A stretch of 64,000 bases of DNA from a virus. Both the position numbers and the translations under genes were made by a program. The notes below the pieces were generated by a model. That model searched no databases. It was not told the DNA's origin and saw only the letters and a program-made list of their open reading frames with translations. Positions within the stretch are counted from its first letter, which is position 1; the number at the start of each line of letters is the position of its first letter. This document shows, piece by piece, positions 2,217-38,818 of the stretch. The stretch spans positions 32,001 through 96,000 of the IMG/VR virus record IMGVR_UViG_3300037452_000118; one strand, given 5' to 3'.

Positions 2217-2368
2217 TGAGAACCACGCACAAGCAGACGATTACCTTCACGAAACCAGAGATCGACTACCTGCGGATCGAGGCTAAACGCCTCGGCATAT
2301 CCGTGGCCGATCTTGTGCGGCGGATCATAGATCAGCACCAAGAGAGCCAAAGGAAAGCAGCAAAATGA
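2216..2368 (+). CDS. Ribbon-helix-helix (CopG-like) regulator, 50 aa
   Basis: Hand translation MRTTHKQTITFTKPEIDYLRIEAKRLGISVADLVRRIIDQH...; beta-strand then GISVADLVRR helix pattern; ATGA overlap with the next gene. Absent from the ORF track because it is short. Confidence 0.8.
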   Translation: MRTTHKQTITFTKPEIDYLRIEAKRLGISVADLVRRIIDQHQESQRKAAK

Positions 2369-3177
2369 ACAAACCAATCCAAGCCGAAGAGGCCGTTACC
2401 GTTGCCGAGATACAGATGACCGAGATGAGCTTCAACATCGTCGGGACATCCCCTCTCGTGATCCATGCTATGAGCGCGAAGAGCAAAGGCTCTCTGCTCT
2501 TTCCATCTCCGCGCAAGAATGCGACGGAGCGAGCGACGACGATGAAGCACGAACCATATGAGGAGTTTCTCGGCGCTTGCTATCGCTTCAGGGACGCCGA
2601 CAAATCGCCGACCCGGCTCTATATGCCGGCCGGAGCTTTTCATGCCGCGATGGCCAACTCCGCGATTGATATGGTCGGCGCTAAGAAAGCGCAGATCGGG
2701 CGCTTGACTACGGTACCCGGCGGCAAGATTCCAATCTTCGGTGTGCCGCAACTCTGGATGACCACCGTCAGGTCGAGCGACATGGCGCGAACACCGGACA
2801 TTCGCACGCTGCCGATCCTGCCGTCATGGTGCGCCACGATCACGGTGCAGTTCGTCGGTAGCCTGATCAAGCAGCAGTCGATCGCCAATCTGCTCGCTGC
2901 CGCTGGCGTCATCATTGGTATCGGTGACGGGCGCCCAGAGAAGGGCAAATTGTCGATGGGCCAGTTTCGCCTTTGCTCCGACGATGATCTAGAGTTTTTG
3001 CGGATCGTGAAGCAAGGCGTAACCGCGCAGGATAAGGCGCTTGCCGACCCGGCGACTTTCGACGAGGAAACTGCAGAACTTTGGGATTGGTTCACAAAAG
3101 AAAAAACCAAACGGGCGGCGGCTCCGGCGTCAATACCGAAGCGCCCCCCCCAAGGCAGAGCATGCAGCGCGAGCTAA
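2365..3177 (+). CDS. Stand-alone Cas7/RAMP-like protein, candidate effector of the adjacent pentamer arrays
   Basis: RAMP-like motifs: N-terminal strand IVGTSPLVIH, LYMPAGAFHAAM (like the YIPGSSLKGA motif), W-x-x-T-I-T-V strand and Gly-rich loop GIGDGRPEKGK..GQF. No cas1/2/3/10 in the window. Confidence 0.75.
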   Translation: MNKPIQAEEAVTVAEIQMTEMSFNIVGTSPLVIHAMSAKSKGSLLFPSPRKNATERATTMKHEPYEEFLGACYRFRDADKSPTRLYMPAGAFHAAMANSAIDMVGAKKAQIGRLTTVPGGKIPIFGVPQLWMTTVRSSDMARTPDIRTLPILPSWCATITVQFVGSLIKQQSIANLLAAAGVIIGIGDGRPEKGKLSMGQFRLCSDDDLEFLRIVKQGVTAQDKALADPATFDEETAELWDWFTKEKTKRAAAPASIPKRPPQGRACSAS

Positions 3178-3188
3178 CGGCTCTTGAA

Positions 3189-4060
3189 ATCCAGTCCAGT
3201 TGGGACACGATAGCCCAGTCATATCTCGATGTGACGAGATACGACTAGATGCGACCGGGACCAACAAGACTTGATCGGTCAAGATGCGAACAGTCTTGAT
3301 GCGACGGGACCGGATATGATCCGATGAGCCGTGACTGGACCAACGCGACTAGACCGGACGCGACGCGATACGATCTGGCTAGATACGATGAGACCAATGC
3401 GATGCGTTTGGCCGAGTTCGGACGCGACATGATCCGCCGTGATGCGCTTTGCCAAGACGCGACCAACATGATGAGCCGTGACCAGCCACGATCAGACCCG
3501 ACGGGCCGGAGCGCGACTTGCTCAGACCAACAAGACCTGCCGAGCCGCGATCGGCCGCGCTGCGATACGATTGGACAGGACGTGTTTTGTCCAACATGAC
3601 CCGACTAGCGATGACGAGCGGTGCCGGGCCATGACGAGACCAACAAGCCAAGTCTGGACGTGCTCGGACGGAATATGATCGGACTGGACAAGACCAACAC
3701 GACAAGACTGGAGACGACGTGCGGAGCCGGGACCGGCCGCGACAACGCTGGACCTGACCAACGGGCCTAGAAGGGACCGGATTAGCAATGCCGTGGCGAG
3801 ACGGGACCGACAAGTCACGATCAGCCAAGTCCCGAGGAGCCAACGCGAGATCGGACATGCCAAGACCAACGAGGTTTGCTCAGATGAGCGAAGCCGCGAC
3901 GTGATCGGCCAAGACGTGACCAACGTGACTGGCTATGCCGAGATTGGCCCGGACCAGATGCCTTGGGACGAGACTTGAAATGCCGAGACCAACGAGCCGC
4001 GATGTGACCTGACGCGCTATGCCGCGATCAGTAGCGATGAGATGGGATAAGTTGCCAACC
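3189..4060 (+). repeat. Pentamer-periodic array 1, (G-led triplet + NN)n units separated by GACCAAC; candidate guide-RNA array
   Basis: Delimiters at 3259, 3338, 3392, 3461, 3525, 3589, 3638, 3692, 3756, 3805, 3864, 3918, 3987 (variants GACCAAT, GTCCAAC, GACCGAC). Spacings 79,54,69,64,64,49,54,64,49,59,54,69 are all 5n+4. Triplets are mostly GAC/GAT/GCC/GTC. Confidence 0.93.
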
Positions 4061-4076
4061 AAAGAGGAGGTTAAAA

Positions 4077-4571
4077 ATGTCGACCATGAAAATCCGCGCT
4101 GCGGCGATCAAAGCGATCGAGGATGAAGCCGGCAGAGTGACGGCGGAAGCGCTGGTATTGGCGGCGCGCGATCAAACCCATCCGCTGCACAAGGAGTTTC
4201 CCTGGGACGACAAAAAGGCGGCGCACCAGCATCGCCTCGATGTCGCCCGCCGTATAATCGCCAGCGTAAGGGTAACCATCACAACTACAACCAAGAAGGT
4301 AACCTGCGTTGGCTATGTCAGGGATCCTGAAGCCGGGCTACGACAGGGCTACGTCAGCACCGTCAAGCTGCGTACTGAGGCCGATGCTGCGCGGGAAGCC
4401 CTCGGCGCGGAGATCGCCAGGGTACAGAGCATTTTGGAAAGAGCGAAGGAACTCGCTGCAGGCCTCGAGCTTGACGAGGATTTTCAATTGTCTCTCGCCG
4501 GCGCCTTGGATTTTTCCAGCCGGATGCGAAAAGGACTCGGTTTTCCAGGAGATGGAAGAGCCTTGCAATAA
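4077..4571 (+). CDS. Phage hypothetical protein embedded between the two arrays (partner of the RAMP gene)
   Basis: Strong SD AGAGGAGG; motif TAEALVLAAR..HPLHKEFPWDD..AA..HRL..ARRII. Confidence 0.8.
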   Translation: MSTMKIRAAAIKAIEDEAGRVTAEALVLAARDQTHPLHKEFPWDDKKAAHQHRLDVARRIIASVRVTITTTTKKVTCVGYVRDPEAGLRQGYVSTVKLRTEADAAREALGAEIARVQSILERAKELAAGLELDEDFQLSLAGALDFSSRMRKGLGFPGDGRALQ

Positions 4572-4577
4572 AGCCTA

Positions 4578-4711
4578 AACGTACTGTGCCGTGTCACGTT
4601 ACGACATGATCGGACACGATCTGACGAGACCAACGCGACCTGACTCGTCTTGTTGCGGTGAGGCATGACATGATGCGATTTGTCGCGATCCGACTAGCCG
4701 CAGCAAGATGA
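4578..4711 (+). repeat. Pentamer-periodic array 2 (two units)
   Basis: aac gt/act gt/gcc gt/gtc ac/gtt ac/gac at/gat cg/gac ac/gat ct/gac ga, GACCAAC at 4628, then 15 further pentamers. Confidence 0.88.
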
Positions 4712-4725
4712 TCAAAGGGAAGCTA

Positions 4726-5727
4726 ATGATACTCTCTGTCGGGGAATACGATGCCCTTGAGCAGGAAGCTCGCTGCGGTCTTTCTTTTTGCGAGCTCATG
4801 GCCTTCGCGCCGCGCACTTTCGACATGCTCGGCTTCCCGCATCGCGTCGAGGATGAGCGGGAGCTCGTCCGCTACGCCGATTGGAATCGGGACACCGGAA
4901 ATCAAGAATACTTTCGGCCCGGCCATTTCTTCGGCGGCCCGGCCGTGCAGACCGACTTCACCGCCGATGAGGTCGAGATGATGAATCGCGTCCGCGACCA
5001 GGCCGTCGCGGCGACCACCAAGCTCGGCCGGCCGGTGCGGCCGCTGTGCAGTCCCTTCGCGCAGCTCGGCCTGTTTCGCATCTTGGCCGCCATCGGATTG
5101 CCTGGGCTCCGCGTCTTCGAGGTCGGCCCCGGTACCGCCTATCTCGGCGCCATGCTCATCAACGAAGGCGCGAGCTATTATTCTTTCACCGACAACGCCC
5201 AGGCGCTTTTCCTTTGGCAATGTCGCTTGATGGCCGAGGTCGGGTATCAACCGACGTCGCGCGCTGGGCTTCCGTGGTGGGACTTCGCCCGCGGCGTCAA
5301 CCTTCTTCCGGTCGATGTCGTGGTCTCCAACACCAACCTCGGCGAGATGACCGGCGACGCGCTCAAGATCACGGCGCACCGCGCGCGGCAGATGCTGGAG
5401 AGATCGCCGCTTGGTCTCTTCCTGTTCGTCAACGTCGGGGCGCCGATGTACAATTCGGAGGAGGGCGTCGACCGCGAGCTGCGCCGTGCCGGCTTCAGCC
5501 TCGTCGTCAACCGCTTTTTCCGCGCCTACCGGGCGCCCAACTCCGAGCCGCTCCCGGAGGCGGCGCTGGCCTTGGAGTTCGGCATGCCGCTCTATAATCC
5601 AAGCGGCAGGCCTGGCACGGTGTCCGGTGGCGAGGCCGTGTACATCCCCGACGACCAGCGCCCGCTCGACCTCGACGTTACGGAGCTGCTGGAGGGGTGG
5701 CGCCCGCCGGTGAGGAGCAAGCCATGA
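4726..5727 (+). CDS. SAM-dependent methyltransferase (putative sugar O-methyltransferase-like)
   Basis: Motif I VFEVGPGTAYLG, acidic FTD at strand 2, later DVVVSNTNLGEM. ATG 4726 preferred because 4708 lies inside array 2. Confidence 0.75.
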   Translation: MILSVGEYDALEQEARCGLSFCELMAFAPRTFDMLGFPHRVEDERELVRYADWNRDTGNQEYFRPGHFFGGPAVQTDFTADEVEMMNRVRDQAVAATTKLGRPVRPLCSPFAQLGLFRILAAIGLPGLRVFEVGPGTAYLGAMLINEGASYYSFTDNAQALFLWQCRLMAEVGYQPTSRAGLPWWDFARGVNLLPVDVVVSNTNLGEMTGDALKITAHRARQMLERSPLGLFLFVNVGAPMYNSEEGVDRELRRAGFSLVVNRFFRAYRAPNSEPLPEAALALEFGMPLYNPSGRPGTVSGGEAVYIPDDQRPLDLDVTELLEGWRPPVRSKP

Positions 5728-9296: not shown

Positions 9297-10094
9297 ATGC
9301 CGAGGCCGCCTAAACGCGACAAAGCCTTCAAGACTGAGGTTGAATTATGCGGTGCATTTTTGGCCGCTGTTGATAATACTCAATGGACCGCATTCGCGGA
9401 AACGGCGAATTGGGACATACTTTTAGTCCGCAAGATCGACGGCTTCCAGATCGGCATCCAGGCGAAGCTGAAGCTCAACGTCGACGTTGTAAACCAGGTG
9501 ATCGAGGGCGACGATGGCTGGTTCAACACCGCCCACGCCCACCCCGACTGCTGCGCGATCCTCGTCCCCGAGGGCGACGACGGCAAGCTCGGGAAAGTGT
9601 GCGACTGCCTCGGCATCACGGTGATCAGGATGCGGTCGGCGAGCGCGGAGGGCTGGCGCGAGAGCGACTTCAAGCACAACGCCCGCTTCACGCCTGACCT
9701 GCCGCAGCCGGGGAAGTCTTGGAGTCAGGAAGCCTGGCACGACCTCGCCACGGTGAAGCGGCACAAGCTGCCGGAATACGTGCCGGACGTCGCGGCCGGC
9801 GCGCCCTCCCCGCTCCAGCTCACCGACTGGAAGATCAAGGCGATCAAGCTCGCCGTCACGCTGGAAATGAGAAAGCATCTCACCCGCCGCGACTTCGCCC
9901 ACCACGGCGTCGACCACCGCCGCTGGGTAACGCAGGGCTGGCTGAAGGTAGTCGACGGCCGCTACGTCAAGGACGCCTTCCCGAACTTCAAGAAAATGCA
10001 CCCGGTCAATTACAAGCAAATCAAAAAGGACGCGCCGAAATGGCTGCCGAAGACTCTGCTGGAGCCGGTGGCAACCCAGGCGGCGATGCTGTGA
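9297..10094 (+). CDS. Hypothetical protein, possible PD-(D/E)XK-like fold
   Basis: E...WDILLV...IGIQAK pattern; strong coding bias. Confidence 0.5.
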   Translation: MPRPPKRDKAFKTEVELCGAFLAAVDNTQWTAFAETANWDILLVRKIDGFQIGIQAKLKLNVDVVNQVIEGDDGWFNTAHAHPDCCAILVPEGDDGKLGKVCDCLGITVIRMRSASAEGWRESDFKHNARFTPDLPQPGKSWSQEAWHDLATVKRHKLPEYVPDVAAGAPSPLQLTDWKIKAIKLAVTLEMRKHLTRRDFAHHGVDHRRWVTQGWLKVVDGRYVKDAFPNFKKMHPVNYKQIKKDAPKWLPKTLLEPVATQAAML

Positions 10095-10930
10095 GCCTGA
10101 TCCGGGTTTTCCCCAGGCGCACGCGGGCGACGCCCGACGATGCCCTCGCGCGCTTCGGGCCGCCCGACCTCCTCGATGAGGCCGACGAGGTGCACGTCTC
10201 GGTCACCTTTACCTACGACAAGGCCAAGGCGGAGCAGCTCGCGGAGCAATGGCGCCACGTCGCGCCGGTCAAGATCGGCGGCGTGGCCTACGGCGACACC
10301 AGCCTGGAGTTCATCCCCGGCCGCTATCTGAGGCCCGGCTACACGATCACCTCGCGCGGCTGCCCGCGCCGCTGCTGGTTCTGCAGCGTCCCAAAGAAGT
10401 GGCCGACCGTGAACCTGCTTCCGATCTACGACGGCTGGAACGTCCTCGACGACAACCTGCTGGCCTGCGACCGCGGCCACTTCGAGAGCGTCATCGCCAT
10501 GCTCCGGCGCCAGAAACTGCCGGAGAACGGCCGCGTCGAGTTCAGCGGCGGGCTCGAGGCGCTGTCGCTGCAGGACTGGCACGTCGACATGCTGGCCAGC
10601 CTGAAGCCGCGCCCGAACTGCTTCTTCGCCTACGACCCCGGCGACGCCTTCGAGACGCTGGAGAGCGCCGCGCGCCGGATGCTCGCCGCTGGCTTCACGG
10701 CGGCGTCGCACCGGCTGCGGACCTTCGTCCTCGTCGGCTATCCCAAGGACACGCTGGCGCTCGCCGAGGCGAGGCTGCGGCAGATGACTTCCATCGGCTT
10801 TACCCCGTTCGCGATGCTGTGGAGGCCGGAGACGCCATCGCAGCAGAGATATGCGCCCGGACCGGAGTGGAAGCGGTTCCAAAAAATGTGGGCGCGACCG
10901 GCTATCATTCACGCCCAGGCGGCGGCATAG
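10091..10930 (+). CDS. Radical SAM protein
   Basis: TSRGCPRRCWFC, LDDNLL; GTG start at 10091 overlaps the previous stop. Confidence 0.85.
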   Translation: MSLIRVFPRRTRATPDDALARFGPPDLLDEADEVHVSVTFTYDKAKAEQLAEQWRHVAPVKIGGVAYGDTSLEFIPGRYLRPGYTITSRGCPRRCWFCSVPKKWPTVNLLPIYDGWNVLDDNLLACDRGHFESVIAMLRRQKLPENGRVEFSGGLEALSLQDWHVDMLASLKPRPNCFFAYDPGDAFETLESAARRMLAAGFTAASHRLRTFVLVGYPKDTLALAEARLRQMTSIGFTPFAMLWRPETPSQQRYAPGPEWKRFQKMWARPAIIHAQAAA

Positions 10931-16077: not shown

Positions 16078-16557
16078 ATGGCTGACCAACGGCGCGAGCG
16101 CGACAAGTCCGGCGCCGCCGCGGCGTTCGGCGTCGCGATCCTCCTCCTGCTGGCGGTCATGCTGGCTTGGTGCGGGCATCGCGTCCCGGCGGCGCTCCCG
16201 CCGGCCGCAGAGCCGCCGATCGTTGCGCCGACCCCTCCGGTTGTTGCGCCGGAACCCCCTCCCGTTGCATCGGAGCCGCCGGCCGTCGCGCAACCGGGCG
16301 AAGCGCCCCAGATGGCGCCGCAGGAAGAGCCGAAACCACCGGAACCGGCCGTTCCAGCTATGCCCCTGCCGCCAGATAGGGCCGTGGCGCCGCCGACCCC
16401 GCCAGACGCGGCGCCGCCGGCGCGGGCCACGCCAGCGGGCCCGGCGCCCGGTCGCGCCCCCGCCCCCCGCAGGCACCGGGCGCCCCGTCCCCGCGGCGAC
16501 CGCGGCTGCAGCCAAGCCTACCTGTCGATCTCCTGCCCGCAGAAGGAACGCCAATGA
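16078..16557 (+). CDS. Membrane-anchored proline-rich protein
   Basis: Hydrophobic N-terminal helix then Pro-rich tract; ATGA overlap with the portal gene. Confidence 0.55.
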   Translation: MADQRRERDKSGAAAAFGVAILLLLAVMLAWCGHRVPAALPPAAEPPIVAPTPPVVAPEPPPVASEPPAVAQPGEAPQMAPQEEPKPPEPAVPAMPLPPDRAVAPPTPPDAAPPARATPAGPAPGRAPAPRRHRAPRPRGDRGCSQAYLSISCPQKERQ

Positions 16558-19500
16558 CCAAGAAAGCCGGCCACGGCGGCCCGAGGCCCGGCGCCGGCCG
16601 CAAGCCGCTGACCCCCGAGGAGCAGGAGGCCAAGCGGGTTCGGCGGAACGAGGCCGCCCGGAAACGCCGCGCCGACGCCAAGGCGAAGGCCGCCGGCGCG
16701 GCCGTAGCCGAGGCCCCCGCCACCGTCCCCGCCGCGCCGAAGGGCCAGCAGGCGGGCGCCTGGGGCGACGCGCGGGCCATCGAGGCGCTGATGGAGCGGA
16801 TGGGCCAGCGGAGGAAGCGGAGCCGGGCGCCGGAGTTCAACCCGTTCCAGGTCGCCAAGCACCCGCCGCGGGCCACCCCGCCGAAGAAGCTCCAGATGGC
16901 GATGGACGACGGCACGATGGGCTGGGCGGCGAGCGCCTGGCTGGGCGGGTTCGGCGGCGTCTTCGGGGCGGTGGGCGCGGAGGGGCTGCAGTTCCTCGGC
17001 TACCCCTACCTGTCGGAGCTGGCGCAGCGGACGGAGTACCGCGTCATCTCGGAGACCATCGCCGACGACGCCACGCGGAAGTGGATCGACTTCGACGTCA
17101 CCGGCACCATCAAGGACAAGGAGAAGGGCCAGGACGACGAGGAGACCGAGGAGAAGGAGGAGGCCGGCGAGCCGGTCGACCCCGACGAGGAGAAGCAGAA
17201 GCGCGAGGACCGCGTGAAGTCCTCGGGCAAGATGGAGAAGGTGAAGCAGCTCAAGGACGAGCTGGCGCGGCTCGAGCTGCGGGACTGCATGTACCGGATC
17301 TGCCGCGACGACGGCTTCTTCGGGCGATCGCACCTCTACCTCGACTTCGGCGACGACCTCGACAAGACCGAGGCGATGAACGAGCTGAAGACGCCGATCG
17401 GCGACGGCCGCGACAAGCTCAGCCAGGGCAAGGTGGGACCGCAGAAGCCGCTGGCGGCGGTGCGCCCGGTCGAGCCGGTGTGGTGCTACCCGACGACCTA
17501 CAACGCCATCAACCCGCTGCGCGACGACTGGTACAACCCGCAGGTCTGGTACGTGATGGGCCGCGAGATCCACCGCAGCCGCCTGCCGACCTTCGTCGGC
17601 CACCCGGTCCCCGACCTCCTGAAGCCTGCGTACTCGTTCGGCGGCCTGTCGCTGTCGCAGATAGCGAAACCCTACGTCGACATCTGGCTGCAGACCCGGG
17701 ACAGCGTTGGGGAGCTGATCCACGCCTTCTCGACGATGGTGCTGCTGACCGACGTGCAGACCAACCTGGCGCCGGGGGCGACCGGCGGTCCGGGCACGCT
17801 GATGGCGCGCGTCGCCGCGTTCAACGACTTCCGCGACAACATGAACACCTTCGTGCTGAACAAAAATACGGAGGATTTCAAAAATGTGTCGGTCCCGCTC
17901 GGCGGCCTGCACGAGCTCCAGGCGCAGTCGCAGGAGCATGTTGCCTCGGCTGTACGCATCCCGCTCATCAAGTTCACGGGGCTGCAGCCTGCGGGACTCA
18001 ATGCGTCCGCCGAGGGTGAGGTGCGAGCATATTACGACACGATCGCGGCCTACCAGAACCGCTTCCTACGGCCCAACCTGACCCGCGTCCTCAACTTCGT
18101 GCAGCTCTCGCTATGGGGCGAGATTGACCCAGAAATTGTCTTCGACTTCGAGGGCCTCTGGGAGATGAGCGAGAAGGAGAAGGCCGACCTCCAGAAGGCC
18201 GAGGCGGAGCGCAACCAGACCTACGTCGACATGGGCGTCATCGCGCCGGAGGAGGTCCGCGGCGTGGTCATCGACGACCCCGAGCTGCCGTTCGGCGACC
18301 TCGACCCCGACGACGTGCCGGAGCTCAAGGAGGAGGAAGAGGGCGGCCTCATCCCGCCCGGCGGCGGGCGCGCCGAGGAGGCCATCATCGGCGAGCCGGG
18401 CGCGGAGCCCGGCGGTCCGGGCCGGCCGGCGGGCGCCCCGGCGCCGAAGCCCGGCGGCGGCCACGGCGACCCGGCGTTCCAGGAAGACGGGGGAGGCGCG
18501 GCGGCGGGGGCGCGCAACGTGGTCCCTTTCAGGGCGCGCGGCGCCGCTGACGAGCTGGACCCGCTCTTCGCCAGCCTCGCCAACGACGCCGCGATCGAGT
18601 GGAACGAGAGCAAGCACCCCCGCGACCCCAAGGGCGAGTTCACGGCTGGCGCGTCGGCTGGCGCGGCGTCCCATGCCGCGGAGACCGGCGCCGGCGCCCC
18701 GAAGGCCAAGGGCTACGGCTGGCACGGCGGCCCCCAGCAGCACTTCGTCATGCCGCAGTTCGGGCTGTGGGGGCCGCCGGGCAGTTTCGGCGGCGGGCAC
18801 TGGAGGCCGGAGCCGCGGCCGCCGCTCGACCCCTCGACGCTCAAGAAGGTCGGCCCGCAGATGGGGTCGAACCCCGGCGGCGTGTTCGAGGACGAGAAGG
18901 GGCGCAAGTTCTACGTCAAGGAGGGCCGGTCCAAGGACCACGTCCGCAACGAGCTCACCGCGGCCGACCTCTACGACCTCGCCGGCGCCCCGACGCTGCG
19001 CTACCGCGACGTCGCCGGCGGCGCGCACATAGCGTCGGAGATGGAGAAGCTCAGCAAGAAGAACGCGTCGGAGCTGTCGGCGGAGGAGGTGCGCAAGGCC
19101 AAGCGCGACTTCGCCGCGCACGCCTGGACGGCGAACTACGACGCGGTGGGCACCGGCGGCGACAACCTTGTCGCGGCGGGCCCGGACGTCTTCACGGTCG
19201 ACCTCGGCGGCGCGCTTGAATACCGGGCGCGCGGCAAGCCCAAGGGCGACGCGTTCGGGAACCAAGTCACAGAGATGGACACCATGCGCGATCCGAGCAT
19301 CGCGCCGGACGCCTCCGCGATCTTCGGCGACATCACCCCCGCCGAGTTCAGGGAATCGGCCGCCCGCGTGACGCGGATCAGCGACGGCGCCATCCGCGCC
19401 GCGGTCAAAGCGCGCGGCGGGTCGGACGCCTTGGCCGACAAGATGATCGCGCGGCGCGACGACATAGCGAAGCGGGCCAAGACTTTCGGCGCCGAGGGCG

Positions 19501-22500
19501 ATCCGAAGAAGAAGACCTCGACCGTGATCTTCCCCGCCGGCGACGCGCTACCGGTGAAGACGCTCAACGGGGTGGCGTTCGAGCCGTGGACGCCGCCGGC
19601 CGACGGCGACTGGAACGAGGTCGACGGCCAGATGGACATCGAGGACGAGGCGCCGCTGCCGGAGGGCGCGCAGGGCAAGCAGCTGGCCTCGGGACTGATC
19701 ATCAGGGAGAAGGACGGCCGCGTCTGGCTCGCCCGGCCGAAGGGTGGCTTCGGCGGATACGACAGCACATTTCCAAAGGGCCGGGTCGAGCACGCGCTGT
19801 CGATGCAGGCCAACGCGATCAAGGAGGCCTTCGAGGAGACCGGGCTCAAGGGGCGGATCACCGGCATGGCCGGCGACCGCGTCGGCGACGTCACGCTGAC
19901 CCGGTACTATCTCGCGGAGCGCGAGGGCGGCGATCCCAGCCGGCCCGGAGAGGAGAGCGAGGGCGTGGTGCTGGCGCCGGCGGACAAGCTCGACGGCTTC
20001 CTCAACCGCGACCGCGACCGCAAGCTGGCCAAGGAGATCGCCCAGGACGAGGAGCCCGGCGCGCCGCGGACGCTCTACGTCAACCGCCCGCTGCTCAACG
20101 CCGGCGACCTGGCGGCGTGGGCGCGGGAGCACGGCGTCAAGAAGCTGCTGCCGGCCGACGACATGCACGTTACCGTGGCGTTCAGCAAGGCGCCGCTGGC
20201 GTGGGCCGCTGCTGGGGACGGCGCGGCGAAGGTCGTCGCCGAGGGTGGCGAGCGGTCGGTCGAGCGCCTCGGCAACGAGGGCGCCGTAGTGCTGCGCTTC
20301 GAGTGCCCCGCGCTGGACCGGGACTGGCGGCGGTTCGTCGACGCCGGCGCCTCGTGGGACCATCCAGGCTACAAGCCGCACGTCACCTTCACGATGGGCG
20401 ACGTCGACGTCGACGCGGTCGAGCCCTACGACGGGCCGCTGGAGTTCGGGCCGGAAGAGTGGGACGAGATCGGCAACCGGCCGGCCGACTGGGCCGCCAA
20501 GGCGAAGGCCTCGCTGGTCGCCGCGGACGCCTTCGAGGAGGGCAAGCACCCCCGCGGGCAGCCGGAGAACAAGGGCCAGTTCGGCCCCGGAGGCGGCGGG
20601 GGCGGCCAGGCGAAGCGGACCTCGGCCGGCAGGCCGACGCCCCGGCGCGGGAGCGGGGCGGTGCTGCAAAGCCGGAGCCAGGGCGCCGCCCAGGCGGCGG
20701 CCGCGGCGCCGAAGCACGACTCCGCGAAGCTGCTGGAGAAGTCGGTCTCCGACGCGCTGGCGAAGGCCACGCCGAAGCAGAAAGAGCAGGCGGCCGACCA
20801 CGACCGCAAGACGAAAGCGTTCCTCGCCTCGGAGCCCGCCCGCAAGTCGATGGCGGCGTCGGTCAAGGCGTTCGCCGCCAAGCACGCCGCGGCGATGGCG
20901 AACTACCACCTCACCGACGCGATCATGCTGCCCGGGGTGCACCACGTCGTCGAGCAGGCGGTCTCTGCGATCGGGCTGGGCGCGGTGCCCGGCCTCACGC
21001 TGGGCGCCACCGCGGTCGCGGCGTACGCGGCGAACCGGCTGATCGAGACCTACCACCTCAACCTCACCGGGGCGAAGCAGCTGCTGGCGCCGGTGGTGCG
21101 CGGGATGGTCGACGTGCTCGGCAACGTCAAGGAGACCTCGGCGCGGATCGCCGACCTGGAGCGGCGCGGGCTCGTCGGGGCGGAGGACGCGAAACGCGAC
21201 GATACCGTGCTCGACGCGCTGATCGTACTGCTGCTGGAGGTCGAGAAGCTCGGCGAGGAGGAGCCGCAGGCCGAGGACGAGGCGCCGTTTGAGGAGTCGA
21301 AGCATCCCCGCGACGCGCACGGCGAGTTCACCAGCAAAGGCGGCGAGGGCGGGGGCGGGCAGTACATCGGCACTGGCGGCGAGGAGGATCCCGCGGAGCA
21401 GATCGCCGCGGCCAACGAGCCGCCGGCCGGCGAGGGCACGAAGCCGGTATCTACCAACGACATCGTGAAGAAGGCGAACGCGAACGCCGAGGCCGCCGGC
21501 CAGGGCGGCCTCGACGACGTGGACCCGCTGACGAGCGCGAAGCACAAGTACAACGCCGCGATCCAGCTCGGCGCCAACTACGCTACGGCGACGTGGGCGA
21601 CGACGCACGAGGAGGACGCGGCGCTCAAGCAGGTCTACAGCTCGACCGAAGACGCATGGAAAGCGCTCGCCGAGGCTGAGAAAAATAAGGCCGGCGACCC
21701 GCAACAATCGTTCAAGGCCGAGATCGCGAAGATCGACAACGCTGAGGGCGAGTACGCCGACCTCGATACCAACCTGAAATCTGCCGAAGCGAAGGTAAAG
21801 GCCGGCATGGCGCACGAGATGGCGCCGGATGATGTTGTCGATGCTCTCTCCGAGGTCGAATACAACGCGATCCAGAAGAAGTACGGCAACATTACCGGCG
21901 CCTACGCAGAGATGAAGAAGGCCGATGAGGAAAAACCTCAAGGAGCGCTGGAGTGGGCCAAAAAACTGCTTGAGACCGGGCTTGTCGGGCCAGAGGCGGA
22001 GAAGATTCTCGCCCACCTTGATACGATCGGATACGGCGACACCGACAAACTCAATGCTTTGATCGCGCAGGCTGCCGGGAAAGAAGCGCCCACTCCACAA
22101 GCCAAGGAGGGCAAAACCAAGTTCGGCGGCCTGTGGAAGGTGACCGGCCTCGGCGAGAAGGCGGACATCCAGCTCAACGCCAAGACGGTGCTCCTCAAAC
22201 CGACCAACGCCGGACAGAGCTACCGGCAGATGATGACGTTCCTGATCAACAACGCCGCGGCCGGCGACCTCGACGCCGACATCGTCGGCAAATTGAAAGT
22301 TAAACTGGTCGAGGCGCTCTACAAGGCCAGCGACAAGGCGACTCAGCTCGGCAAGGAGGGCGACGCCAAGAAGATCAACCTCGCGCTGAACAAGATCAGC
22401 ATGAAGGAGCCGGCCATCCTCGCCGCCGGGATGGGGGCGTGGGAGGCCAGCAAGAACGGCCAGCCGCCGCCGGCCTACAAGCCCCCGCAGCCCGAGCCCG

Positions 22501-23777
22501 ATCCGGCGCCGCAATCCAAGCCGACCGTGAACGACAAGGCGATGGCCTCCTTCAAGAAAGCTGCCGCCGCGATGTGGAAGAAGGCCGGTTACGGCCCCGA
22601 CAGCAAGGGCGATTCGGTCACCGCGTCCGAGAAGGCCAAGCTGGCCGCGCAGCACGGCATCTCGACGCAAGACCTCATCGACAATCTCACCTTGGCGGAG
22701 AACAAGTCGCTGAAGGATTTTTACGGCTCGATCGCCAACGCGATGAATTGGGCCGCGAACAAGGTCGAACCCGACGCCAACGAGGCGAAGGAGGTCGCCA
22801 CGATCGCGCCGGCGACGTCCGCGTCGGAGCCACCGTCATCGTTGAAGGCGACCTATGCCGAGATCACCAAGGCGAAGAAGACCGCTCCGCTCCAACTGCA
22901 GTACGTGCCGAACGCGCCGCAGACCGATGAAGCGCAGAAGCTCGTCGACGAGTTCAACGCGAAGTGGTCCGGCAAGGAGGTCGACGACGACATCGCGCTG
23001 AAGAAGATCGCCGACTTCAAGGCGATGCAGCAGAAGATGGTGCCGCTGATGAACGCGGCGCAGAAGGCGGCGGCGGAGCAGAACGCCAAGATCGCCGCGG
23101 AGGCGAAAAAATCGCAGGCGGAGCAAGTCGCGAAGTCGGCGAAGGAGACCGCGAAGCACGCGGCGCAGCTCGAGGAGTACAAGAAGGAACTCGGCGTCGG
23201 CGACGCGGAGGCCGAGGCCTTCGAGGGCCTGGTCGACATGCTCGGCGGCGACAAGCAGAAGGTGCTGGCCAGTTTCAAGAGCTACGCTACCTCCGCAGGC
23301 CACGGCCTGACCGGCTTCGAGGGCAAGCTGATCGCGGGCTACAAGTCGGACAGCAGCGTCGTCAACGCGGAGATGCGGAAGCCTATGGCGTCGTGGAAGT
23401 CGCCGAAGTTCATGTACGCCAAGATATTGAACAAGGCGCTGTCGAAGCTGCCCGGCTACAGCGGCGTCACGATCAGGAACACGCCGCTGAGCAGCGAGCT
23501 GCAGATGCGCTACCAGCCCGGCAACGTCGTCATGGAGCACGGCTTCACCGGGACCTCGAAGCAGAAGCCGAACGGGGTGTTCAGCGGCAACACGAGGTTC
23601 TACATCAAGGGGATCGGCAAGCGGGCGGCCGACATCTCGGAGATGTACGGCTTCCAGGGCGAGGGCGAGGTGCTCTACCAAGCGCACACCGCCTTCCACG
23701 TCGACAAGGTCGAGGGCCAGGTAGGCAGCGACGGCGAGGCGAGCTACAAGGTCTACATGACCGAGCTGGAGGTTTGA
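16554..23777 (+). CDS. Giant portal (DUF1073-like) fusion with kinase-like, Nudix, 2H phosphoesterase (Acb1-like) and ADP-ribosyltransferase domains
   Basis: Portal ~16896-18330 (FLGYPYLSELAQR, IPLIKFTGLQPAGLNASAEGE); kinase-like ~18840-19490 (GSNPGG, FYVK, NE, D..G..DN, VDLGG); Nudix box GRVE..AIKEAFEETGL ~19670-20040; two HxT motifs (HVTV, HVTF) ~20068-20470; ART R..GTS..EGE ~23310-23777. Confidence 0.88.
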   Translation: MTKKAGHGGPRPGAGRKPLTPEEQEAKRVRRNEAARKRRADAKAKAAGAAVAEAPATVPAAPKGQQAGAWGDARAIEALMERMGQRRKRSRAPEFNPFQVAKHPPRATPPKKLQMAMDDGTMGWAASAWLGGFGGVFGAVGAEGLQFLGYPYLSELAQRTEYRVISETIADDATRKWIDFDVTGTIKDKEKGQDDEETEEKEEAGEPVDPDEEKQKREDRVKSSGKMEKVKQLKDELARLELRDCMYRICRDDGFFGRSHLYLDFGDDLDKTEAMNELKTPIGDGRDKLSQGKVGPQKPLAAVRPVEPVWCYPTTYNAINPLRDDWYNPQVWYVMGREIHRSRLPTFVGHPVPDLLKPAYSFGGLSLSQIAKPYVDIWLQTRDSVGELIHAFSTMVLLTDVQTNLAPGATGGPGTLMARVAAFNDFRDNMNTFVLNKNTEDFKNVSVPLGGLHELQAQSQEHVASAVRIPLIKFTGLQPAGLNASAEGEVRAYYDTIAAYQNRFLRPNLTRVLNFVQLSLWGEIDPEIVFDFEGLWEMSEKEKADLQKAEAERNQTYVDMGVIAPEEVRGVVIDDPELPFGDLDPDDVPELKEEEEGGLIPPGGGRAEEAIIGEPGAEPGGPGRPAGAPAPKPGGGHGDPAFQEDGGGAAAGARNVVPFRARGAADELDPLFASLANDAAIEWNESKHPRDPKGEFTAGASAGAASHAAETGAGAPKAKGYGWHGGPQQHFVMPQFGLWGPPGSFGGGHWRPEPRPPLDPSTLKKVGPQMGSNPGGVFEDEKGRKFYVKEGRSKDHVRNELTAADLYDLAGAPTLRYRDVAGGAHIASEMEKLSKKNASELSAEEVRKAKRDFAAHAWTANYDAVGTGGDNLVAAGPDVFTVDLGGALEYRARGKPKGDAFGNQVTEMDTMRDPSIAPDASAIFGDITPAEFRESAARVTRISDGAIRAAVKARGGSDALADKMIARRDDIAKRAKTFGAEGDPKKKTSTVIFPAGDALPVKTLNGVAFEPWTPPADGDWNEVDGQMDIEDEAPLPEGAQGKQLASGLIIREKDGRVWLARPKGGFGGYDSTFPKGRVEHALSMQANAIKEAFEETGLKGRITGMAGDRVGDVTLTRYYLAEREGGDPSRPGEESEGVVLAPADKLDGFLNRDRDRKLAKEIAQDEEPGAPRTLYVNRPLLNAGDLAAWAREHGVKKLLPADDMHVTVAFSKAPLAWAAAGDGAAKVVAEGGERSVERLGNEGAVVLRFECPALDRDWRRFVDAGASWDHPGYKPHVTFTMGDVDVDAVEPYDGPLEFGPEEWDEIGNRPADWAAKAKASLVAADAFEEGKHPRGQPENKGQFGPGGGGGGQAKRTSAGRPTPRRGSGAVLQSRSQGAAQAAAAAPKHDSAKLLEKSVSDALAKATPKQKEQAADHDRKTKAFLASEPARKSMAASVKAFAAKHAAAMANYHLTDAIMLPGVHHVVEQAVSAIGLGAVPGLTLGATAVAAYAANRLIETYHLNLTGAKQLLAPVVRGMVDVLGNVKETSARIADLERRGLVGAEDAKRDDTVLDALIVLLLEVEKLGEEEPQAEDEAPFEESKHPRDAHGEFTSKGGEGGGGQYIGTGGEEDPAEQIAAANEPPAGEGTKPVSTNDIVKKANANAEAAGQGGLDDVDPLTSAKHKYNAAIQLGANYATATWATTHEEDAALKQVYSSTEDAWKALAEAEKNKAGDPQQSFKAEIAKIDNAEGEYADLDTNLKSAEAKVKAGMAHEMAPDDVVDALSEVEYNAIQKKYGNITGAYAEMKKADEEKPQGALEWAKKLLETGLVGPEAEKILAHLDTIGYGDTDKLNALIAQAAGKEAPTPQAKEGKTKFGGLWKVTGLGEKADIQLNAKTVLLKPTNAGQSYRQMMTFLINNAAAGDLDADIVGKLKVKLVEALYKASDKATQLGKEGDAKKINLALNKISMKEPAILAAGMGAWEASKNGQPPPAYKPPQPEPDPAPQSKPTVNDKAMASFKKAAAAMWKKAGYGPDSKGDSVTASEKAKLAAQHGISTQDLIDNLTLAENKSLKDFYGSIANAMNWAANKVEPDANEAKEVATIAPATSASEPPSSLKATYAEITKAKKTAPLQLQYVPNAPQTDEAQKLVDEFNAKWSGKEVDDDIALKKIADFKAMQQKMVPLMNAAQKAAAEQNAKIAAEAKKSQAEQVAKSAKETAKHAAQLEEYKKELGVGDAEAEAFEGLVDMLGGDKQKVLASFKSYATSAGHGLTGFEGKLIAGYKSDSSVVNAEMRKPMASWKSPKFMYAKILNKALSKLPGYSGVTIRNTPLSSELQMRYQPGNVVMEHGFTGTSKQKPNGVFSGNTRFYIKGIGKRAADISEMYGFQGEGEVLYQAHTAFHVDKVEGQVGSDGEASYKVYMTELEV

Positions 23778-35800: not shown

Positions 35801-35875
35801 GCTGGCATAGCTCAGATGTAGAGCAGCTCCCCTGTAAGGAGACGCGCGGAGACTCAAGCCCTCCTGTCAGCACCA
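35801..35875 (+). tRNA. tRNA-Thr(TGT)
   Basis: Cloverleaf, CCA end, atypical T-loop. Confidence 0.8.
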
Positions 35876-35878
35876 TTC

Positions 35879-35953
35879 GGCCCCTGAAGCATTGTGACGA
35901 TGCAGCCGCCCCGTAAGCGGCAGAGCCGTGTTTGATTCACGGCTGGGGCTCCA
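35879..35953 (+). tRNA. tRNA-Thr(CGT)
   Basis: CCGC-CCCGTAA-GCGG; CCA. Confidence 0.72.
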
Positions 35954-35954
35954 T

Positions 35955-36030
35955 GCTCTCTTAGCTCATTTGGTAGAGCACCGAGTTGGTATCTCGGAGG
36001 CGGGTGGATCGAAGCCACCAGGGAGCACCA
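35955..36030 (+). tRNA. tRNA-Thr(GGT)
   Basis: CCGAG-TTGGTAT-CTCGG; CCA. Confidence 0.88.
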
Positions 36031-36035
36031 TTTTC

Positions 36036-36112
36036 GGCCTCGTAGTCCAACTGGCAGAGACGACGCCCTCAGAAGGCGTGCGTTGGGAGTTCGAATCTCC
36101 CCGAGGCTACCA
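36036..36112 (+). tRNA. tRNA-Leu(CAG)
   Basis: ACGCC-CTCAGAA-GGCGT; short variable loop. Confidence 0.85.
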
Positions 36113-36116
36113 ATTC

Positions 36117-36193
36117 GCTCGCGTATGCAAATCGGTAAAGCAGCGAAGCTCAAACCTTCGTGTTTGGAGATTCGAGTTCTCCCGCGAGCACCA
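36117..36193 (+). tRNA. tRNA-Leu(CAA)
   Basis: CGAAG-CTCAAAC-CTTCG; short variable loop. Confidence 0.82.
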
Positions 36194-36194
36194 T

Positions 36195-36271
36195 GCCGCA
36201 GTAGCCCAATTGGCAGAGGCATCCGGCTTAAACCCGGTTCAGTGCGGGATCGTGGCCCGCTTGCGGCACCA
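36195..36271 (+). tRNA. tRNA-Leu(TAA)
   Basis: CCGG-CTTAAAC-CCGG; short variable loop. Confidence 0.82.
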
Positions 36272-36277
36272 TTTCAC

Positions 36278-36349
36278 GGGCGCTTAGCTCAGAGGAAGAG
36301 CGTCGCGTTTACACCGCGAAGGTCGAGATATCATAATTCTCAGCGCCTA
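36278..36349 (+). tRNA. tRNA-Val(TAC)
   Basis: TCGCG-TTTACAC-CGCGA; no encoded CCA. Confidence 0.8.
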
Positions 36350-36350
36350 C

Positions 36351-36425
36351 GGGCTGTTAGTTCAGCGGCAGAATGCTTGCTCGACACGCAAGAGGTCCGG
36401 TGTTCGATTCACCGACAGCCCACCA
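36351..36425 (+). tRNA. tRNA-Val(GAC)
   Basis: CTTGC-TCGACAC-GCAAG; CCA. Confidence 0.85.
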
Positions 36426-36429
36426 TCAT

Positions 36430-36503
36430 GGTCCTGTATCTCAGTGGCAGAGAACGCGGCCGATAACCGTGAGACGCGGGTTCGATTCCCGACGGGACTA
36501 CCA
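36430..36503 (+). tRNA. tRNA-Ile(GAT)
   Basis: CGCGG-CCGATAA-CCGTG; CCA. Confidence 0.85.
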
Positions 36504-36550
36504 ACGAAAGGAACTAGGAAAATGCTCTATCCGCTCAAACGCGGGTCTGC

Positions 36551-36625
36551 GGACCCGTGGTGTAATAGGTAGCACACGAGACTTTTAATCTTGGAGCCAG
36601 AGTTCAAATCTCTGCGGGTCTACCA
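36551..36625 (+). tRNA. tRNA-Lys(TTT)
   Basis: CGAGA-CTTTTAA-TCTTG; CCA. Confidence 0.85.
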
Positions 36626-36631
36626 AATAAC

Positions 36632-36707
36632 GGACGACTAGCTCAATTGGCAGAGCATCCGCCTCTTAAGCGGCAGGTTCGGGGATCGTGGCCCCGGTCG
36701 TCCTCCA
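36632..36707 (+). tRNA. tRNA-Lys(CTT)
   Basis: CCGC-CTCTTAA-GCGG; CCA. Confidence 0.85.
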
Positions 36708-36708
36708 T

Positions 36709-36784
36709 GTGCCAGTACCCCAACGGTAGAGGGATCGCCCTGAGAAGGCGTTCAGTGGGCGTTCGAATCGCCCTTGGCACACCA
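36709..36784 (+). tRNA. tRNA-Leu(GAG)
   Basis: CGCC-CTGAGAA-GGCG; short variable loop. Confidence 0.8.
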
Positions 36785-36785
36785 T

Positions 36786-36859
36786 GCGGCTATAGCTCAA
36801 AGGCAGAGCGTTCGGTTGTCAACCGAGGGACCGGGGATCAATACCCCGTAGCCGCGCCA
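36786..36859 (+). tRNA. tRNA-Asp(GTC)
   Basis: TTCGG-TTGTCAA-CCGAG; GCCA end. Confidence 0.85.
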
Positions 36860-36865
36860 ATTCAA

Positions 36866-36942
36866 CAGGGTGTAGCTCAGTCTGGTAGAGCACTTGCTTC
36901 GGAAGCAAGGGGCCGCAGGATCGAAGCCTGCCACCCTGACCA
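36866..36942 (+). tRNA. tRNA-Pro(CGG)
   Basis: CTTGC-TTCGGAA-GCAAG; CCA. Confidence 0.9.
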
Positions 36943-36946
36943 ATTC

Positions 36947-37021
36947 GGCCGTCTAGCTTAACGGCAGAGCCCGCGCCTCATAAGCGCAGTGATGCGAGTT
37001 CGACTCTCGCGGCGGCTACCA
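36947..37021 (+). tRNA. tRNA with CAT anticodon (Met or Ile2)
   Basis: GCGC-CTCATAA-GCGC; CCA. Confidence 0.8.
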
Positions 37022-37031
37022 GGAGGCGGCC

Positions 37032-37358
37032 ATGCGCTGCATCGTCAAATACGAGCATCCGAAAAGATTGCTCCGCGTCTACGTGCACGGCGCGCCTCAT
37101 CGGCGCGTCCATCGCGAAGTGCTCAAACGCTACCGCGAGGAATTGTGGAAGGCGGCGCAGGCTGCGGGCATCACGGCGGCGATGACCCATCAAATAACTT
37201 TGTCGGCGACGTTCATCGACCCGACGGGACCGGACTTGGACAACCTCATCACGGCGCTGTTTCAGGCGCTGGACGGCAAATGCGGGAAAGGTCCGACGAT
37301 CTTGAAAGACGACAAACAGATCGTCTACATCGAAAAAACTGGGATCATCTTCCCTTAG
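37032..37358 (+). CDS. RusA-like Holliday junction resolvase/endonuclease inside the tRNA array
   Basis: PDLDNLITALFQALDG..LKDDKQIV; SD AGGAGG. Confidence 0.7.
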   Translation: MRCIVKYEHPKRLLRVYVHGAPHRRVHREVLKRYREELWKAAQAAGITAAMTHQITLSATFIDPTGPDLDNLITALFQALDGKCGKGPTILKDDKQIVYIEKTGIIFP

Positions 37359-37425
37359 CTCATTTGGACAGAGCACCCGGTTCCGAACCGGGAGGTACGG
37401 TGTTCGAATCACCGAGGGAAGGCCA
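37349..37425 (+). tRNA. tRNA-Arg(CCG)
   Basis: CCCGG-TTCCGAA-CCGGG; overlaps the RusA-like stop codon. Confidence 0.88.
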
Positions 37426-37429
37426 ACAT

Positions 37430-37514
37430 GGATGGTTTGCCGGCGGCCCGGCGGCGAGTTTTGAAAACTCGTAGCACCGAAAGGTGTGGCGATCGACACG
37501 TCAACCATCCGCCA
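37430..37514 (+). tRNA. tRNA-Ser(TGA)
   Basis: CGAGT-TTTGAAA-ACTCG; long variable arm. Confidence 0.8.
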
Positions 37515-37518
37515 ATAC

Positions 37519-37604
37519 GGAAGGCTAACCGAACAGGGTTCGGCGTCGCCTGGAAAGCGCACGGCTCGGCAACGAGTGGAGATCGTGTCTTCAGCCTTCC
37601 GCCA
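37519..37604 (+). tRNA. tRNA-Ser(GGA)
   Basis: CGC-CTGGAAA-GCG; long variable arm; GCCA. Confidence 0.75.
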
Positions 37605-37608
37605 TTAC

Positions 37609-37698
37609 GGAAAGTCAACGCGGCGAGTGCCGCGCGCCCGTTCGAAGCGGGATGGAACGCGCATAGCGTTTGGGGATCAAGACCTCGGCTTTCCGCCA
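37609..37698 (+). tRNA. tRNA-Ser(CGA)
   Basis: CCCG-TTCGAAG-CGGG; long variable arm; GCCA. Confidence 0.75.
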
Positions 37699-37702
37699 TT
37701 GA

Positions 37703-37776
37703 CGCGCGATGGAGGAGGAGTTCCTTGCTAGGCTCATAACCTGGAGACGTCGGTGCAAGTCCGGCTCGCGCAACCA
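37703..37776 (+). tRNA. Initiator-like tRNA-fMet(CAT)
   Basis: C1:A72 mismatch; CTAGG-CTCATAA-CCTGG. Confidence 0.78.
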
Positions 37777-37781
37777 ACTAA

Positions 37782-37868
37782 GGGCAAGTATGCAAGAGGC
37801 CAAAGCAGCGGCGCTGTAAACGCCGTCCCGAAAGGGTTCGCAGGTTCGAATCCGTGCCTTGCCCACCA
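37782..37868 (+). tRNA. tRNA-Tyr(GTA)
   Basis: CGGCG-CTGTAAA-CGCCG; long variable arm. Confidence 0.88.
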
Positions 37869-37869
37869 T

Positions 37870-37943
37870 GCGGACAAAGGATTACGGCAGTCTCCCTCGT
37901 TGCCAACGAGGTGGCGGGAGTTCGACTCTCCCTGTCCGTACCA
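37870..37943 (+). tRNA. tRNA-Gly(GCC)
   Basis: CCTCG-TTGCCAA-CGAGG. Confidence 0.82.
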
Positions 37944-37945
37944 AC

Positions 37946-38021
37946 GCCCACTAAGCTAATCTGGTGAAAGCGTCTGCCTGAAGAGCAGAAGAGCGTGGCT
38001 CGAAACCACGAGTGGGCACCA
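37946..38021 (+). tRNA. tRNA-Phe(GAA)
   Basis: TCTGC-CTGAAGA-GCAGA. Confidence 0.85.
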
Positions 38022-38025
38022 ATCT

Positions 38026-38097
38026 GGGCCGGGCGTCGGGACGCAGTGATGCCTTGCAAGCAACGCGTTGGGAGTTCAACTCTCCCTCGGTCCACCA
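38026..38097 (+). tRNA. tRNA-Ala(TGC)
   Basis: TGC-CTTGCAA-GCA; G3:U70 pair; reduced D-arm. Confidence 0.72.
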
Positions 38098-38104
38098 ATT
38101 TTAT

Positions 38105-38178
38105 TCCCCTCTCGTTCAACGGTAGGACACCTGACTGTTAATCAGAGAATTGTGGTTCGATTCCACGGAGGGGAGCCA
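38105..38178 (+). tRNA. tRNA-Asn(GTT)
   Basis: CTGA-CTGTTAA-TCAG; GCCA. Confidence 0.9.
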
Positions 38179-38181
38179 ATT

Positions 38182-38256
38182 GCCGCCATCGTCTAGTGGC
38201 TAGGATATTTGGTTCTCAACCAAATGAAGCGGGGTCGGAACCCGCTGGCGGCTCCA
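38182..38256 (+). tRNA. tRNA-Glu(CTC)
   Basis: TTTGG-TTCTCAA-CCAAA. Confidence 0.85.
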
Positions 38257-38262
38257 TTTTAC

Positions 38263-38339
38263 GGTGGGCGTAGCTCAATCGGTAGAGCACCAGATTGTGA
38301 ATCTGGTGGCCACGGGTTCGATCCCCGTCGCTCACCCCA
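38263..38339 (+). tRNA. tRNA-His(GTG)
   Basis: G-1, CCAGA-TTGTGAA-TCTGG, CCCA end. Confidence 0.92.
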
Positions 38340-38340
38340 A

Positions 38341-38417
38341 GGTCCCATAGCTCAACTGGACAGAGTGCCAGATTACGAATCTGGGAGATCGGGGTTCGAA
38401 TCCTCGTGGGATCGCCA
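38341..38417 (+). tRNA. tRNA-Arg(ACG)
   Basis: CCAGA-TTACGAA-TCTGG. Confidence 0.92.
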
Positions 38418-38422
38418 TTTAA

Positions 38423-38499
38423 CAGGGAGTGGGAAAGTCTGGTAATCCGCTTGCCTTGGAAGCAAGAGATCGCGGGATCGAAGCCCGCCTCCCTGACCA
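38423..38499 (+). tRNA. tRNA-Pro(TGG)
   Basis: CTTGC-CTTGGAA-GCAAG. Confidence 0.85.
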
Positions 38500-38502
38500 A
38501 TT

Positions 38503-38576: not shown

Positions 38577-38580
38577 TGAT

Positions 38581-38655: not shown

Positions 38656-38659
38656 TCTT

Positions 38660-38735: not shown

Positions 38736-38736
38736 C

Positions 38737-38813: not shown

Positions 38814-38818
38814 TTTTT

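Follow-up and report, generated by a model that had tools for sequence, protein, structure and literature searches.

A probable VIPR guide array of staggered GAC/NN pentamers in the genome of an uncultured soil phage

Introduction

What might be the function of a phage DNA tract in which an almost fixed triplet alternates, many times over, with two variable bases, and could these variable bases act as guides? The question was raised by a locus within a 64,000-nucleotide stretch of a viral genome (IMG/VR record IMGVR_UViG_3300037452_000118, positions 32,001 to 96,000), hereafter called the window, to whose numbering all coordinates refer unless stated otherwise. The genome is complete (128,813 bp with direct terminal repeats) and belongs to a tailed phage from soil. 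Among its products are a terminase, a portal fusion protein, a major capsid protein with no more than 46% identity to known phages, a tail sheath and a baseplate. The phage, which has a GC content of 63%, further carries a cluster of 31 tRNA genes (ARAGORN; 35801-39289) covering most amino acids, and an ORF of 2407 aa (16554-23777) in which portal, minor-head and RNA-ligase-like PHROG matches occur together.

Systems with a comparable repeat logic were described in 2026 under the name VIPR (Viral Interference Programmable Repeat). According to the available text of the first description, each combines Vipr, a homologue of RAMP proteins, with a vap gene and with vrRNAs in which the pentamer YNNGG recurs 9-16 times. 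Through its NN dinucleotides a guide pairs with dsDNA by a "1-nt skip", the skipped base being usually the wobble base of a codon, and in nature the guides are directed against competing phages, satellites and prophages (10.64898/2026.04.26.720920). Seven VIPR types are distinguished there, and the legend of fig. S18 of the same preprint describes "staggered" vrRNA arrays, in which each guide starts where the previous one ends, at a register offset of 1 nt. The structure of the Vipr protein of phage SUSP1, as presented in the accessible part of a companion preprint, contains one protomer per repeat (10.64898/2026.04.26.720927). Non-canonical arrays of the forms GAC/NN, CAC/NN, WGT/NN and TGH/NN, detected by entropy periodicity and situated beside Vipr-like folds, are described in the text of a third preprint (10.64898/2026.10.21.760802), and a fourth preprint is likewise related to VIPR (10.64898/2026.10.15.759431). 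In the available portions of these VIPR preprints we found no description of a mechanism for guide acquisition.

Here we present the evidence that the tract is a staggered array of VIPR guides with the GAC/NN scaffold, a scaffold variant that has already been reported, and that the locus is laid out as vipr, staggered array, vap and two further units. We assign this reading a probability of roughly 0.88.

Anatomy of the period-5 tract

The tract is located on the plus strand at 3226-4060 and 4586-4699 and consists of 15-16 units with 9-15 pentamers each. Autocorrelation at lag 5 was 0.41 in 3180-4060, compared with 0.19-0.24 at lags 1-4 and 6-9 and with 0.25 in a coding control. Counting of 178 in-phase pentamers gave the consensus NN-G-[A>C]-[C>T], with G at position 3 in 163/178, A (106) or C (46) at position 4, and C (104) or T (54) at position 5, which makes the latter a pyrimidine in 158 of the 178. 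The second N was flat (45/44/44/45) and the first N was rich in G (73/178). Neighbouring units are separated by the four nucleotides CAAC (once CAAT and once CGAC), which shift the phase by -1. Some pentamers carried degenerate scaffolds, for example in 3763-3866.

Thirteen units and a short leading partial unit were found between the vipr and vap candidate genes, all of them on the plus strand. The partial unit (3226-3265) has six pentamers and an irregular junction, CGGGA-CCAAC. It is followed by a unit of 15 pentamers (3266-3340; CAAC at 3341-3344) and one of 10 (3345-3394; then CAAT). Six units that each end on CAAC come next, with 13 (3399-3463), 12 (3468-3527), 12 (3532-3591), 9 (3596-3640), 10 (3645-3694) and 12 pentamers (3699-3758). 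After a unit of 9 pentamers (3763-3807; CGAC at 3808-3811), three further units followed by CAAC contain 11 (3812-3866, two of them with degenerate scaffolds), 10 (3871-3920) and 13 pentamers (3925-3989), and the last unit before vap has 12 pentamers and reaches the ribosome-binding site of this gene (3994-4053). Downstream of vap, two more plus-strand units occupy 4586-4699, one of 9 pentamers followed by CAAC (4586-4630) and one of 13 that is the last in the locus (4635-4699). A first-pass annotation of this DNA had counted about 12 units in 3338-4060, and there are exactly 12, starting with the one at 3345 and ending with the one at 3994. Two NN strings that it had read out were also exact, the one from its unit 3987 being that of unit 3994 (GA GC GT CT GC AT GC CA GC GA GG AA) and the one from its unit 3864 being that of unit 3871 (GA TT CA GA AA GC GT CG AA GT).

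No long-period repeat was found at the locus, and hence none of the direct repeats of 20-40+ nt with unique spacers by which CRISPR arrays are recognized. An invariable 3' tail of about 40 nt with a pseudoknot after each tract was absent, the units being only 4 nt apart. Folding predictions gave no structure signal (z -0.27), neither strand outdoing its shuffled versions, an Rfam search returned a single chance match to a snoRNA (E 0.85), and a scan for promoters and terminators stayed at chance level.

The strand on which the repeats occur bears on whether the tract might be a dsDNA iteron array to which the winged-helix-like protein of ORF 4077-4571 would bind, for instance in packaging, in partition or at an origin. 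The array does flank this putative DNA-binding gene, and the terminase gene follows about 9 kb downstream. Across the 128.8-kb genome, however, 11 of the 13 plus-strand runs of at least six in-phase pentamers were located at the locus, and the only minus-strand run was located elsewhere (0/1 at the locus). This strict strand asymmetry (11 against 0), a 5-bp period that would set successive sites on opposite faces of the helix, and the co-variation of the motif with those residues of the RAMP protein that contact RNA (see below) make an iteron array the least probable of the explanations that we weighed.

The genes beside the tract

The gene immediately before the tract (2365-3177, plus strand; vipr candidate, phrog_4652) encodes a protein of 270 aa without a Pfam match, which was modelled by AlphaFold with a pLDDT of 83. 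In a Foldseek search with this model, the 35 listed of 37 matches at E<=1e-3 were all CRISPR RAMP chains, namely those of Csm3, Cmr4, Cmr6, Cas7-11 or type VII proteins. The best 50 matches listed by VIA-align were also all CRISPR RAMPs, the top one being 6s6b_I (Z 9.2, 156 residues aligned, rmsd 3.8). The structural matches included 6ifn_E, the Cas7 query by which Vipr was discovered, according to the available text (10.64898/2026.04.26.720920). When a profile of 36 homologues was compared with all PDB sequences, the sole match at E<=1 was the entry "SUSP1 Vipr protein" (36pp_D; E 1.3e-4). The similarity is weak and extends over 50 residues (138-187) in the stretch from thumb to G-loop. The G-loop itself, GIGDGRPEKGK (residues 185-195), was invariant across the 36 homologues. 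Judged by its model, the protein is a RAMP-fold protein, and through the weak 50-residue match it is, at the level of sequence profiles, related to SUSP1 Vipr.

More than 606 homologues were recovered in the Vipr search, the closest of those in genomes being at most 45% identical and scattered over many phyla. A related contig of 104 kb encodes a Vipr with 95% identity. When 50,697 phage records were searched by blastn and tblastn, no match was obtained for the locus or for either of the two proteins, the Vipr candidate included, and single-protein scans of IMG/VR gave no relatives.

The gene that follows the main array (4077-4571, plus strand; phrog_15946) encodes a protein of 164 aa and has a good ribosome-binding site, AAAGAGGAGG, ahead of its ATG. 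Its model (pLDDT 87) shows a winged-helix-like N-terminal part and two long C-terminal helices. Foldseek gave weak forkhead-, MarR- and PadR-like matches only (E about 0.4), and the C-terminal part had a weak coiled-coil match. The family is large, with 12,961 representative clusters at E<=1e-3. We tentatively regard the product as a winged-helix-like accessory protein and the gene as a candidate vap, an assignment for which the fold similarity is weak.

Several other ORFs neighbouring the locus had no family match. Directly before vipr lies a gene for a radical SAM/SPASM protein (1049-2167), and 5 kb downstream there is another radical-SAM-like ORF (9719-10930).

Conservation of the locus

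Starting from 27 homologues of the 164-aa vap candidate, we obtained 36 metagenome loci. A Vipr homologue was encoded immediately upstream in 31 of them, and in the remaining five the contig begins 100-522 nt before the match. Period-5 tracts beside the genes were likewise present in 31/36, and in the other five the contig stops 2-181 nt past the match. A scan of species genomes with the Vipr profile yielded 30 loci, mostly from Alphaproteobacteria MAGs and isolates, of which 25 had period-5 tracts and 15 a detectable vap homologue. Because of this co-occurrence across metagenome and genome loci, the RAMP protein, the small accessory protein and the pentamer array form one conserved system.

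Some variation in layout was seen among the relatives. Six loci with a GGC/GGT scaffold (L013, L014, L021, L025, L028 and L038) have the 4-nt separators AGGC and CGGC, and their array follows vap instead of lying between vipr and vap. The contig of L023 carries two Vipr homologues in opposite orientation (983-1546 and 4324-4912, the latter on the minus strand). An IMG/VR scan for the junction pattern gave two loci, neither of which was an array. Array pieces identical to the window were found in an independent soil run (X3), and the soil-run contigs contained no diverged copy of the array. A contig of run X4 joins position 3211 to 4617 with 16 other letters between, which looks as if a relative were without the main array and vap; with a side of 23 and a depth of 2, this joint is too weak to interpret.

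Comparison with published systems

Among the closest published counterparts is the type II VIPR of SUSP1. Both are two-gene loci on phages with a small RAMP protein, both have guides of 9-16 pentamers in which a fixed triplet alternates with NN of codon-phased composition, and both are devoid of Cas1 and of CRISPR repeats. In the window, however, the scaffold is G-A/C-Y instead of GGY, the units have CAAC alone between them and neither 3' tail nor pseudoknot, the main array sits between vipr and vap, and the Vipr candidate is longer (270 aa compared with 202 aa). Since the 3' tail is absent, the window locus is not a VIPR of type II.

The GAC/NN arrays share with the window their GAC/NN pentamers adjoining a Vipr-like fold. 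The available description gives about 10 repeats for them, whereas the window has units of 9-15 pentamers in long staggered arrays; our comparison of the window clade with the 21 clusters of that work is one with their description in the text alone (10.64898/2026.10.21.760802). To the staggered vrRNA arrays, compared by their figure legend alone, the window is similar in that the guides abut, with CAAC giving a phase shift of -1.

A more distant likeness is that to the Cas7, Csm3 and Cmr4 filaments of Class 1 CRISPR systems, which gave the best structural matches and have one protomer per fixed stretch of guide and, in the accessible text, a base flipping driven by the thumb (10.64898/2026.04.26.720927). 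These filaments have a 6-nt period with one flipped base, whereas the array of the window has a period of 5 nt and, by analogy, would have three flipped guide bases. In contrast to Class 1 CRISPR loci, the window locus has no repeat-spacer array, Cas1 or Cas6-type handle. The first-pass annotation had pointed out that neither Cas1 nor a reverse transcriptase was encoded in the window, and this can be extended to the complete phage genome, in which a scan for these two families (PF01867 and PF00078) gave no match.

NN composition and search for targets

If the units are guides to coding sequences, their NN dinucleotides might resemble codon positions 1-2. When they were compared with the first two positions of sense codons in the phage's own genes, the NN frequencies of the window (n=171) gave r = 0.79, and those of relatives (n=1,479) gave r = 0.80; the five other codon registers gave r from -0.13 to 0.54. 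The suggestion of the first-pass annotation that NN strings look protein-like when read as codon positions 1-2 was thereby borne out. Taken literally as NNG codons, the units contain TAG stops. The 16 units shared no NN strings with one another beyond the level of shuffles. Among five pairs of related loci, mismatches concentrated at the N positions (37%, compared with 13% at G, 21-23% at positions 4-5 and 11% in the flanks), as had been anticipated for guides. Replacement of entire units would account trivially for part of this excess, and the two closest of the pairs were uninformative.

The spacing of the array also resembles that of TRAP sites, which are triplets with two free bases between. 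One could therefore think of a protein-binding RNA scaffold or sponge, in the form of a TRAP-like ring or filament, in which NN are neutral spacers without sequence-specific targeting, and the searches described below indeed gave no target for the window units. A codon-like instead of a neutral NN composition, 16 mutually unrelated units and a neighbouring protein with a RAMP fold and relatedness to Vipr, not to TRAP, all speak against such a sponge, which we consider very improbable. RNA bound by a TRAP-like ring protein was dropped as a candidate, as the neighbouring protein is RAMP/Vipr-like.

For the VIPR reading, targets were sought by gapped matching. In the phage's own genome, none of 15 units reached 80% NN match at skip 1, which agrees with what the available text states for other VIPRs (10.64898/2026.04.26.720920); at other skips, one unit reached at least 80% at skip 2 and none did so at skip 0 or 3. 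Against 63 related loci, the best matches were 20/24 (equalled by 1/40 shuffles) and 15/18 (4/40), which is not significant across 15-16 units. Conversely, the best match of 135 units from relatives to the window phage was 18/20, a value that a set of 135 should reach about once by chance. When vipr and vap genes were examined as possible cross-targets, the outcome was again at chance, with 2/158 units at <=1/100 shuffles. IMG/VR was scanned with exact patterns of 5 of the 16 units. The two 10-NN patterns, from units 3994-4053 and 3871-3920, had 0 matches. Three 8-NN seeds, those of units 3399-3463 and 4635-4699 among them, had 8, 13 and 87 matches, in which the remaining NN agreed at chance level (1-6/14, 0-4/10 and 1-5/10). 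Gapped matches of the window units were thus not enriched over shuffles in the phage genome, in the 63 related loci or in the exact IMG/VR scans of five units. Of the earlier proposal of a guide library against other phage or host genes, the guide part is upheld by homology to VIPR, and enrichment of targets was not seen in these searches. Since gapped matches were not enriched, "other phage or host genes" as targets stay a proposal drawn from homology.

The skip rule itself received support when all units were compared with all loci. Among 158 units searched against about 0.54 Mb of loci plus the window phage genome, skip 1 alone exceeded the shuffles (five matches of >=0.85 compared with 0). 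One guide of L034, a distant relative, had a perfect codon-phased match (20/20) to the last eight codons and the stop of an ORF encoding a helix-turn-helix-like protein on the opposite strand, 0.6 kb from its array (L034:553-612 and L034:1149-1177). The chance expectation of such a match is about 1e-6 per unit, and it serves also as a positive control for the gapped search. The site has the appearance of a self or neighbour target, in contrast to the published VIPRs, for which the available text reports self matches to be absent at a threshold of 80% NN match (10.64898/2026.04.26.720920).

This match raises the question whether some units might be self-regulatory, repressing in a timed manner the phage's own genes beside the locus rather than competitors. 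Two of 15 window units also had their best own-genome match at skip 1 in flanking genes, in frame and in sense orientation, namely unit 3266 (22/30, 73%; 2096-2140 in the radical SAM ORF) and unit 4635 (20/26, 77%; 4777-4815 in ORF 4708-5727), and each of them exceeded 100/100 shuffles. These values are marginal. Both matches are under the published 80% threshold, about 4% of unrelated guides (5/135, with 20 shuffles each) likewise beat all of their shuffles, and self matches are not a feature of the VIPRs in the published text (10.64898/2026.04.26.720920). We therefore regard self-regulation as improbable, if less so than an RNA sponge.

Scaffold specificity

In the accessible text on SUSP1 Vipr, H17 and D177 read the first scaffold base (G1), R138 and W178 hold the second (G2), and R179 is part of the pocket for the third (Y3) (10.64898/2026.04.26.720927). 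In an HMM alignment, the G1 contacts are retained in the window protein (H17 = H34; D177 = D188), as is the Y3 contact (R179 = R190). In contrast, both G2 contacts are replaced, R138 by L149 and W178 by G189. The loss of both residues that hold G2 fits the change of the scaffold from GGY to GAY.

We compared these residues with the scaffold in 42 loci with 20 or more counted pentamers, another 16 of the 58 loci having been left out because they fell below this number. All five loci with Leu in the thumb had A as the commonest scaffold base 2, and all five had GDG in the G-loop. Among loci with Arg in the thumb, G was commonest in 33/36, the exceptions being L012 (A 22, G 21), L060 (T) and L030 (T). 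In L004 the thumb region is off the contig, and this locus had GDG and A. The five Leu loci were 57-74% identical to the window and all other loci at most 48%. As the Leu loci are mutually closest relatives, the co-occurrence of Leu and scaffold A represents one evolutionary event, not five. From these sequence comparisons we infer that the G2-contact residues of Vipr might set scaffold base 2, a detail that may be new.

A more far-reaching idea is that the GAY clade represents a naturally orthogonal VIPR code, brought about by the exchanges of Arg for Leu in the thumb and of an aromatic residue for Gly in the G-loop, so that its phages would neither load the GGY guides of competitors nor be hijacked by them. 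In addition, the two guides with 73-77% in-frame matches to flanking genes would be aimed at diverged orthologues of these genes in rival relatives, with self and non-self split by few NN mismatches. We offer this idea tentatively and consider it rather unlikely as a whole.

Possible mode of action and significance

Returning to the tract as a VIPR guide array, this reading builds on what was observed here: how the array is built, the RAMP fold of the neighbouring protein and its sequence link to SUSP1 Vipr, the conserved association of genes and array and an NN composition similar to codon positions 1-2. Counted against it are the lack of a target for the window units, the weak similarity to SUSP1 Vipr together with the negative tblastn search of phage records, the absence of a type II tail or pseudoknot and of any Rfam or folding signal, the degenerate pentamers, the weak fold match of vap and the greater length of the Vipr candidate.

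By analogy with the SUSP1 system, the steps from transcription and processing to filament formation, DNA targeting and the identity of the targets might be pictured as follows. The plus strand would be transcribed, and CAAC, with its phase shift of -1, would form the boundary between neighbouring guides. Each pentamer would be bound by one Vipr protomer, which would flip the G-A/C-Y triplet out and present the two N bases. Along the filament, NN could then pair with the first two bases of one triplet after another in a dsDNA target while skipping the third, or wobble, base, and a gene that belongs to a competing phage, satellite or prophage would thereby be silenced.

The window locus represents an independent rediscovery, from sequence only, of the logic of VIPR guides, made in an uncultured myovirus from soil, and it extends the VIPR family to a large metagenomic clade (more than 606 Vipr homologues and 12,961 clusters of the vap family). 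Its 16 distinct guides are ready-made probes for competitors of this phage in soil viromes. The co-variation of scaffold base 2 with the G2 residues of Vipr points to a determinant of scaffold specificity, which might be usable for orthogonal VIPR tools.
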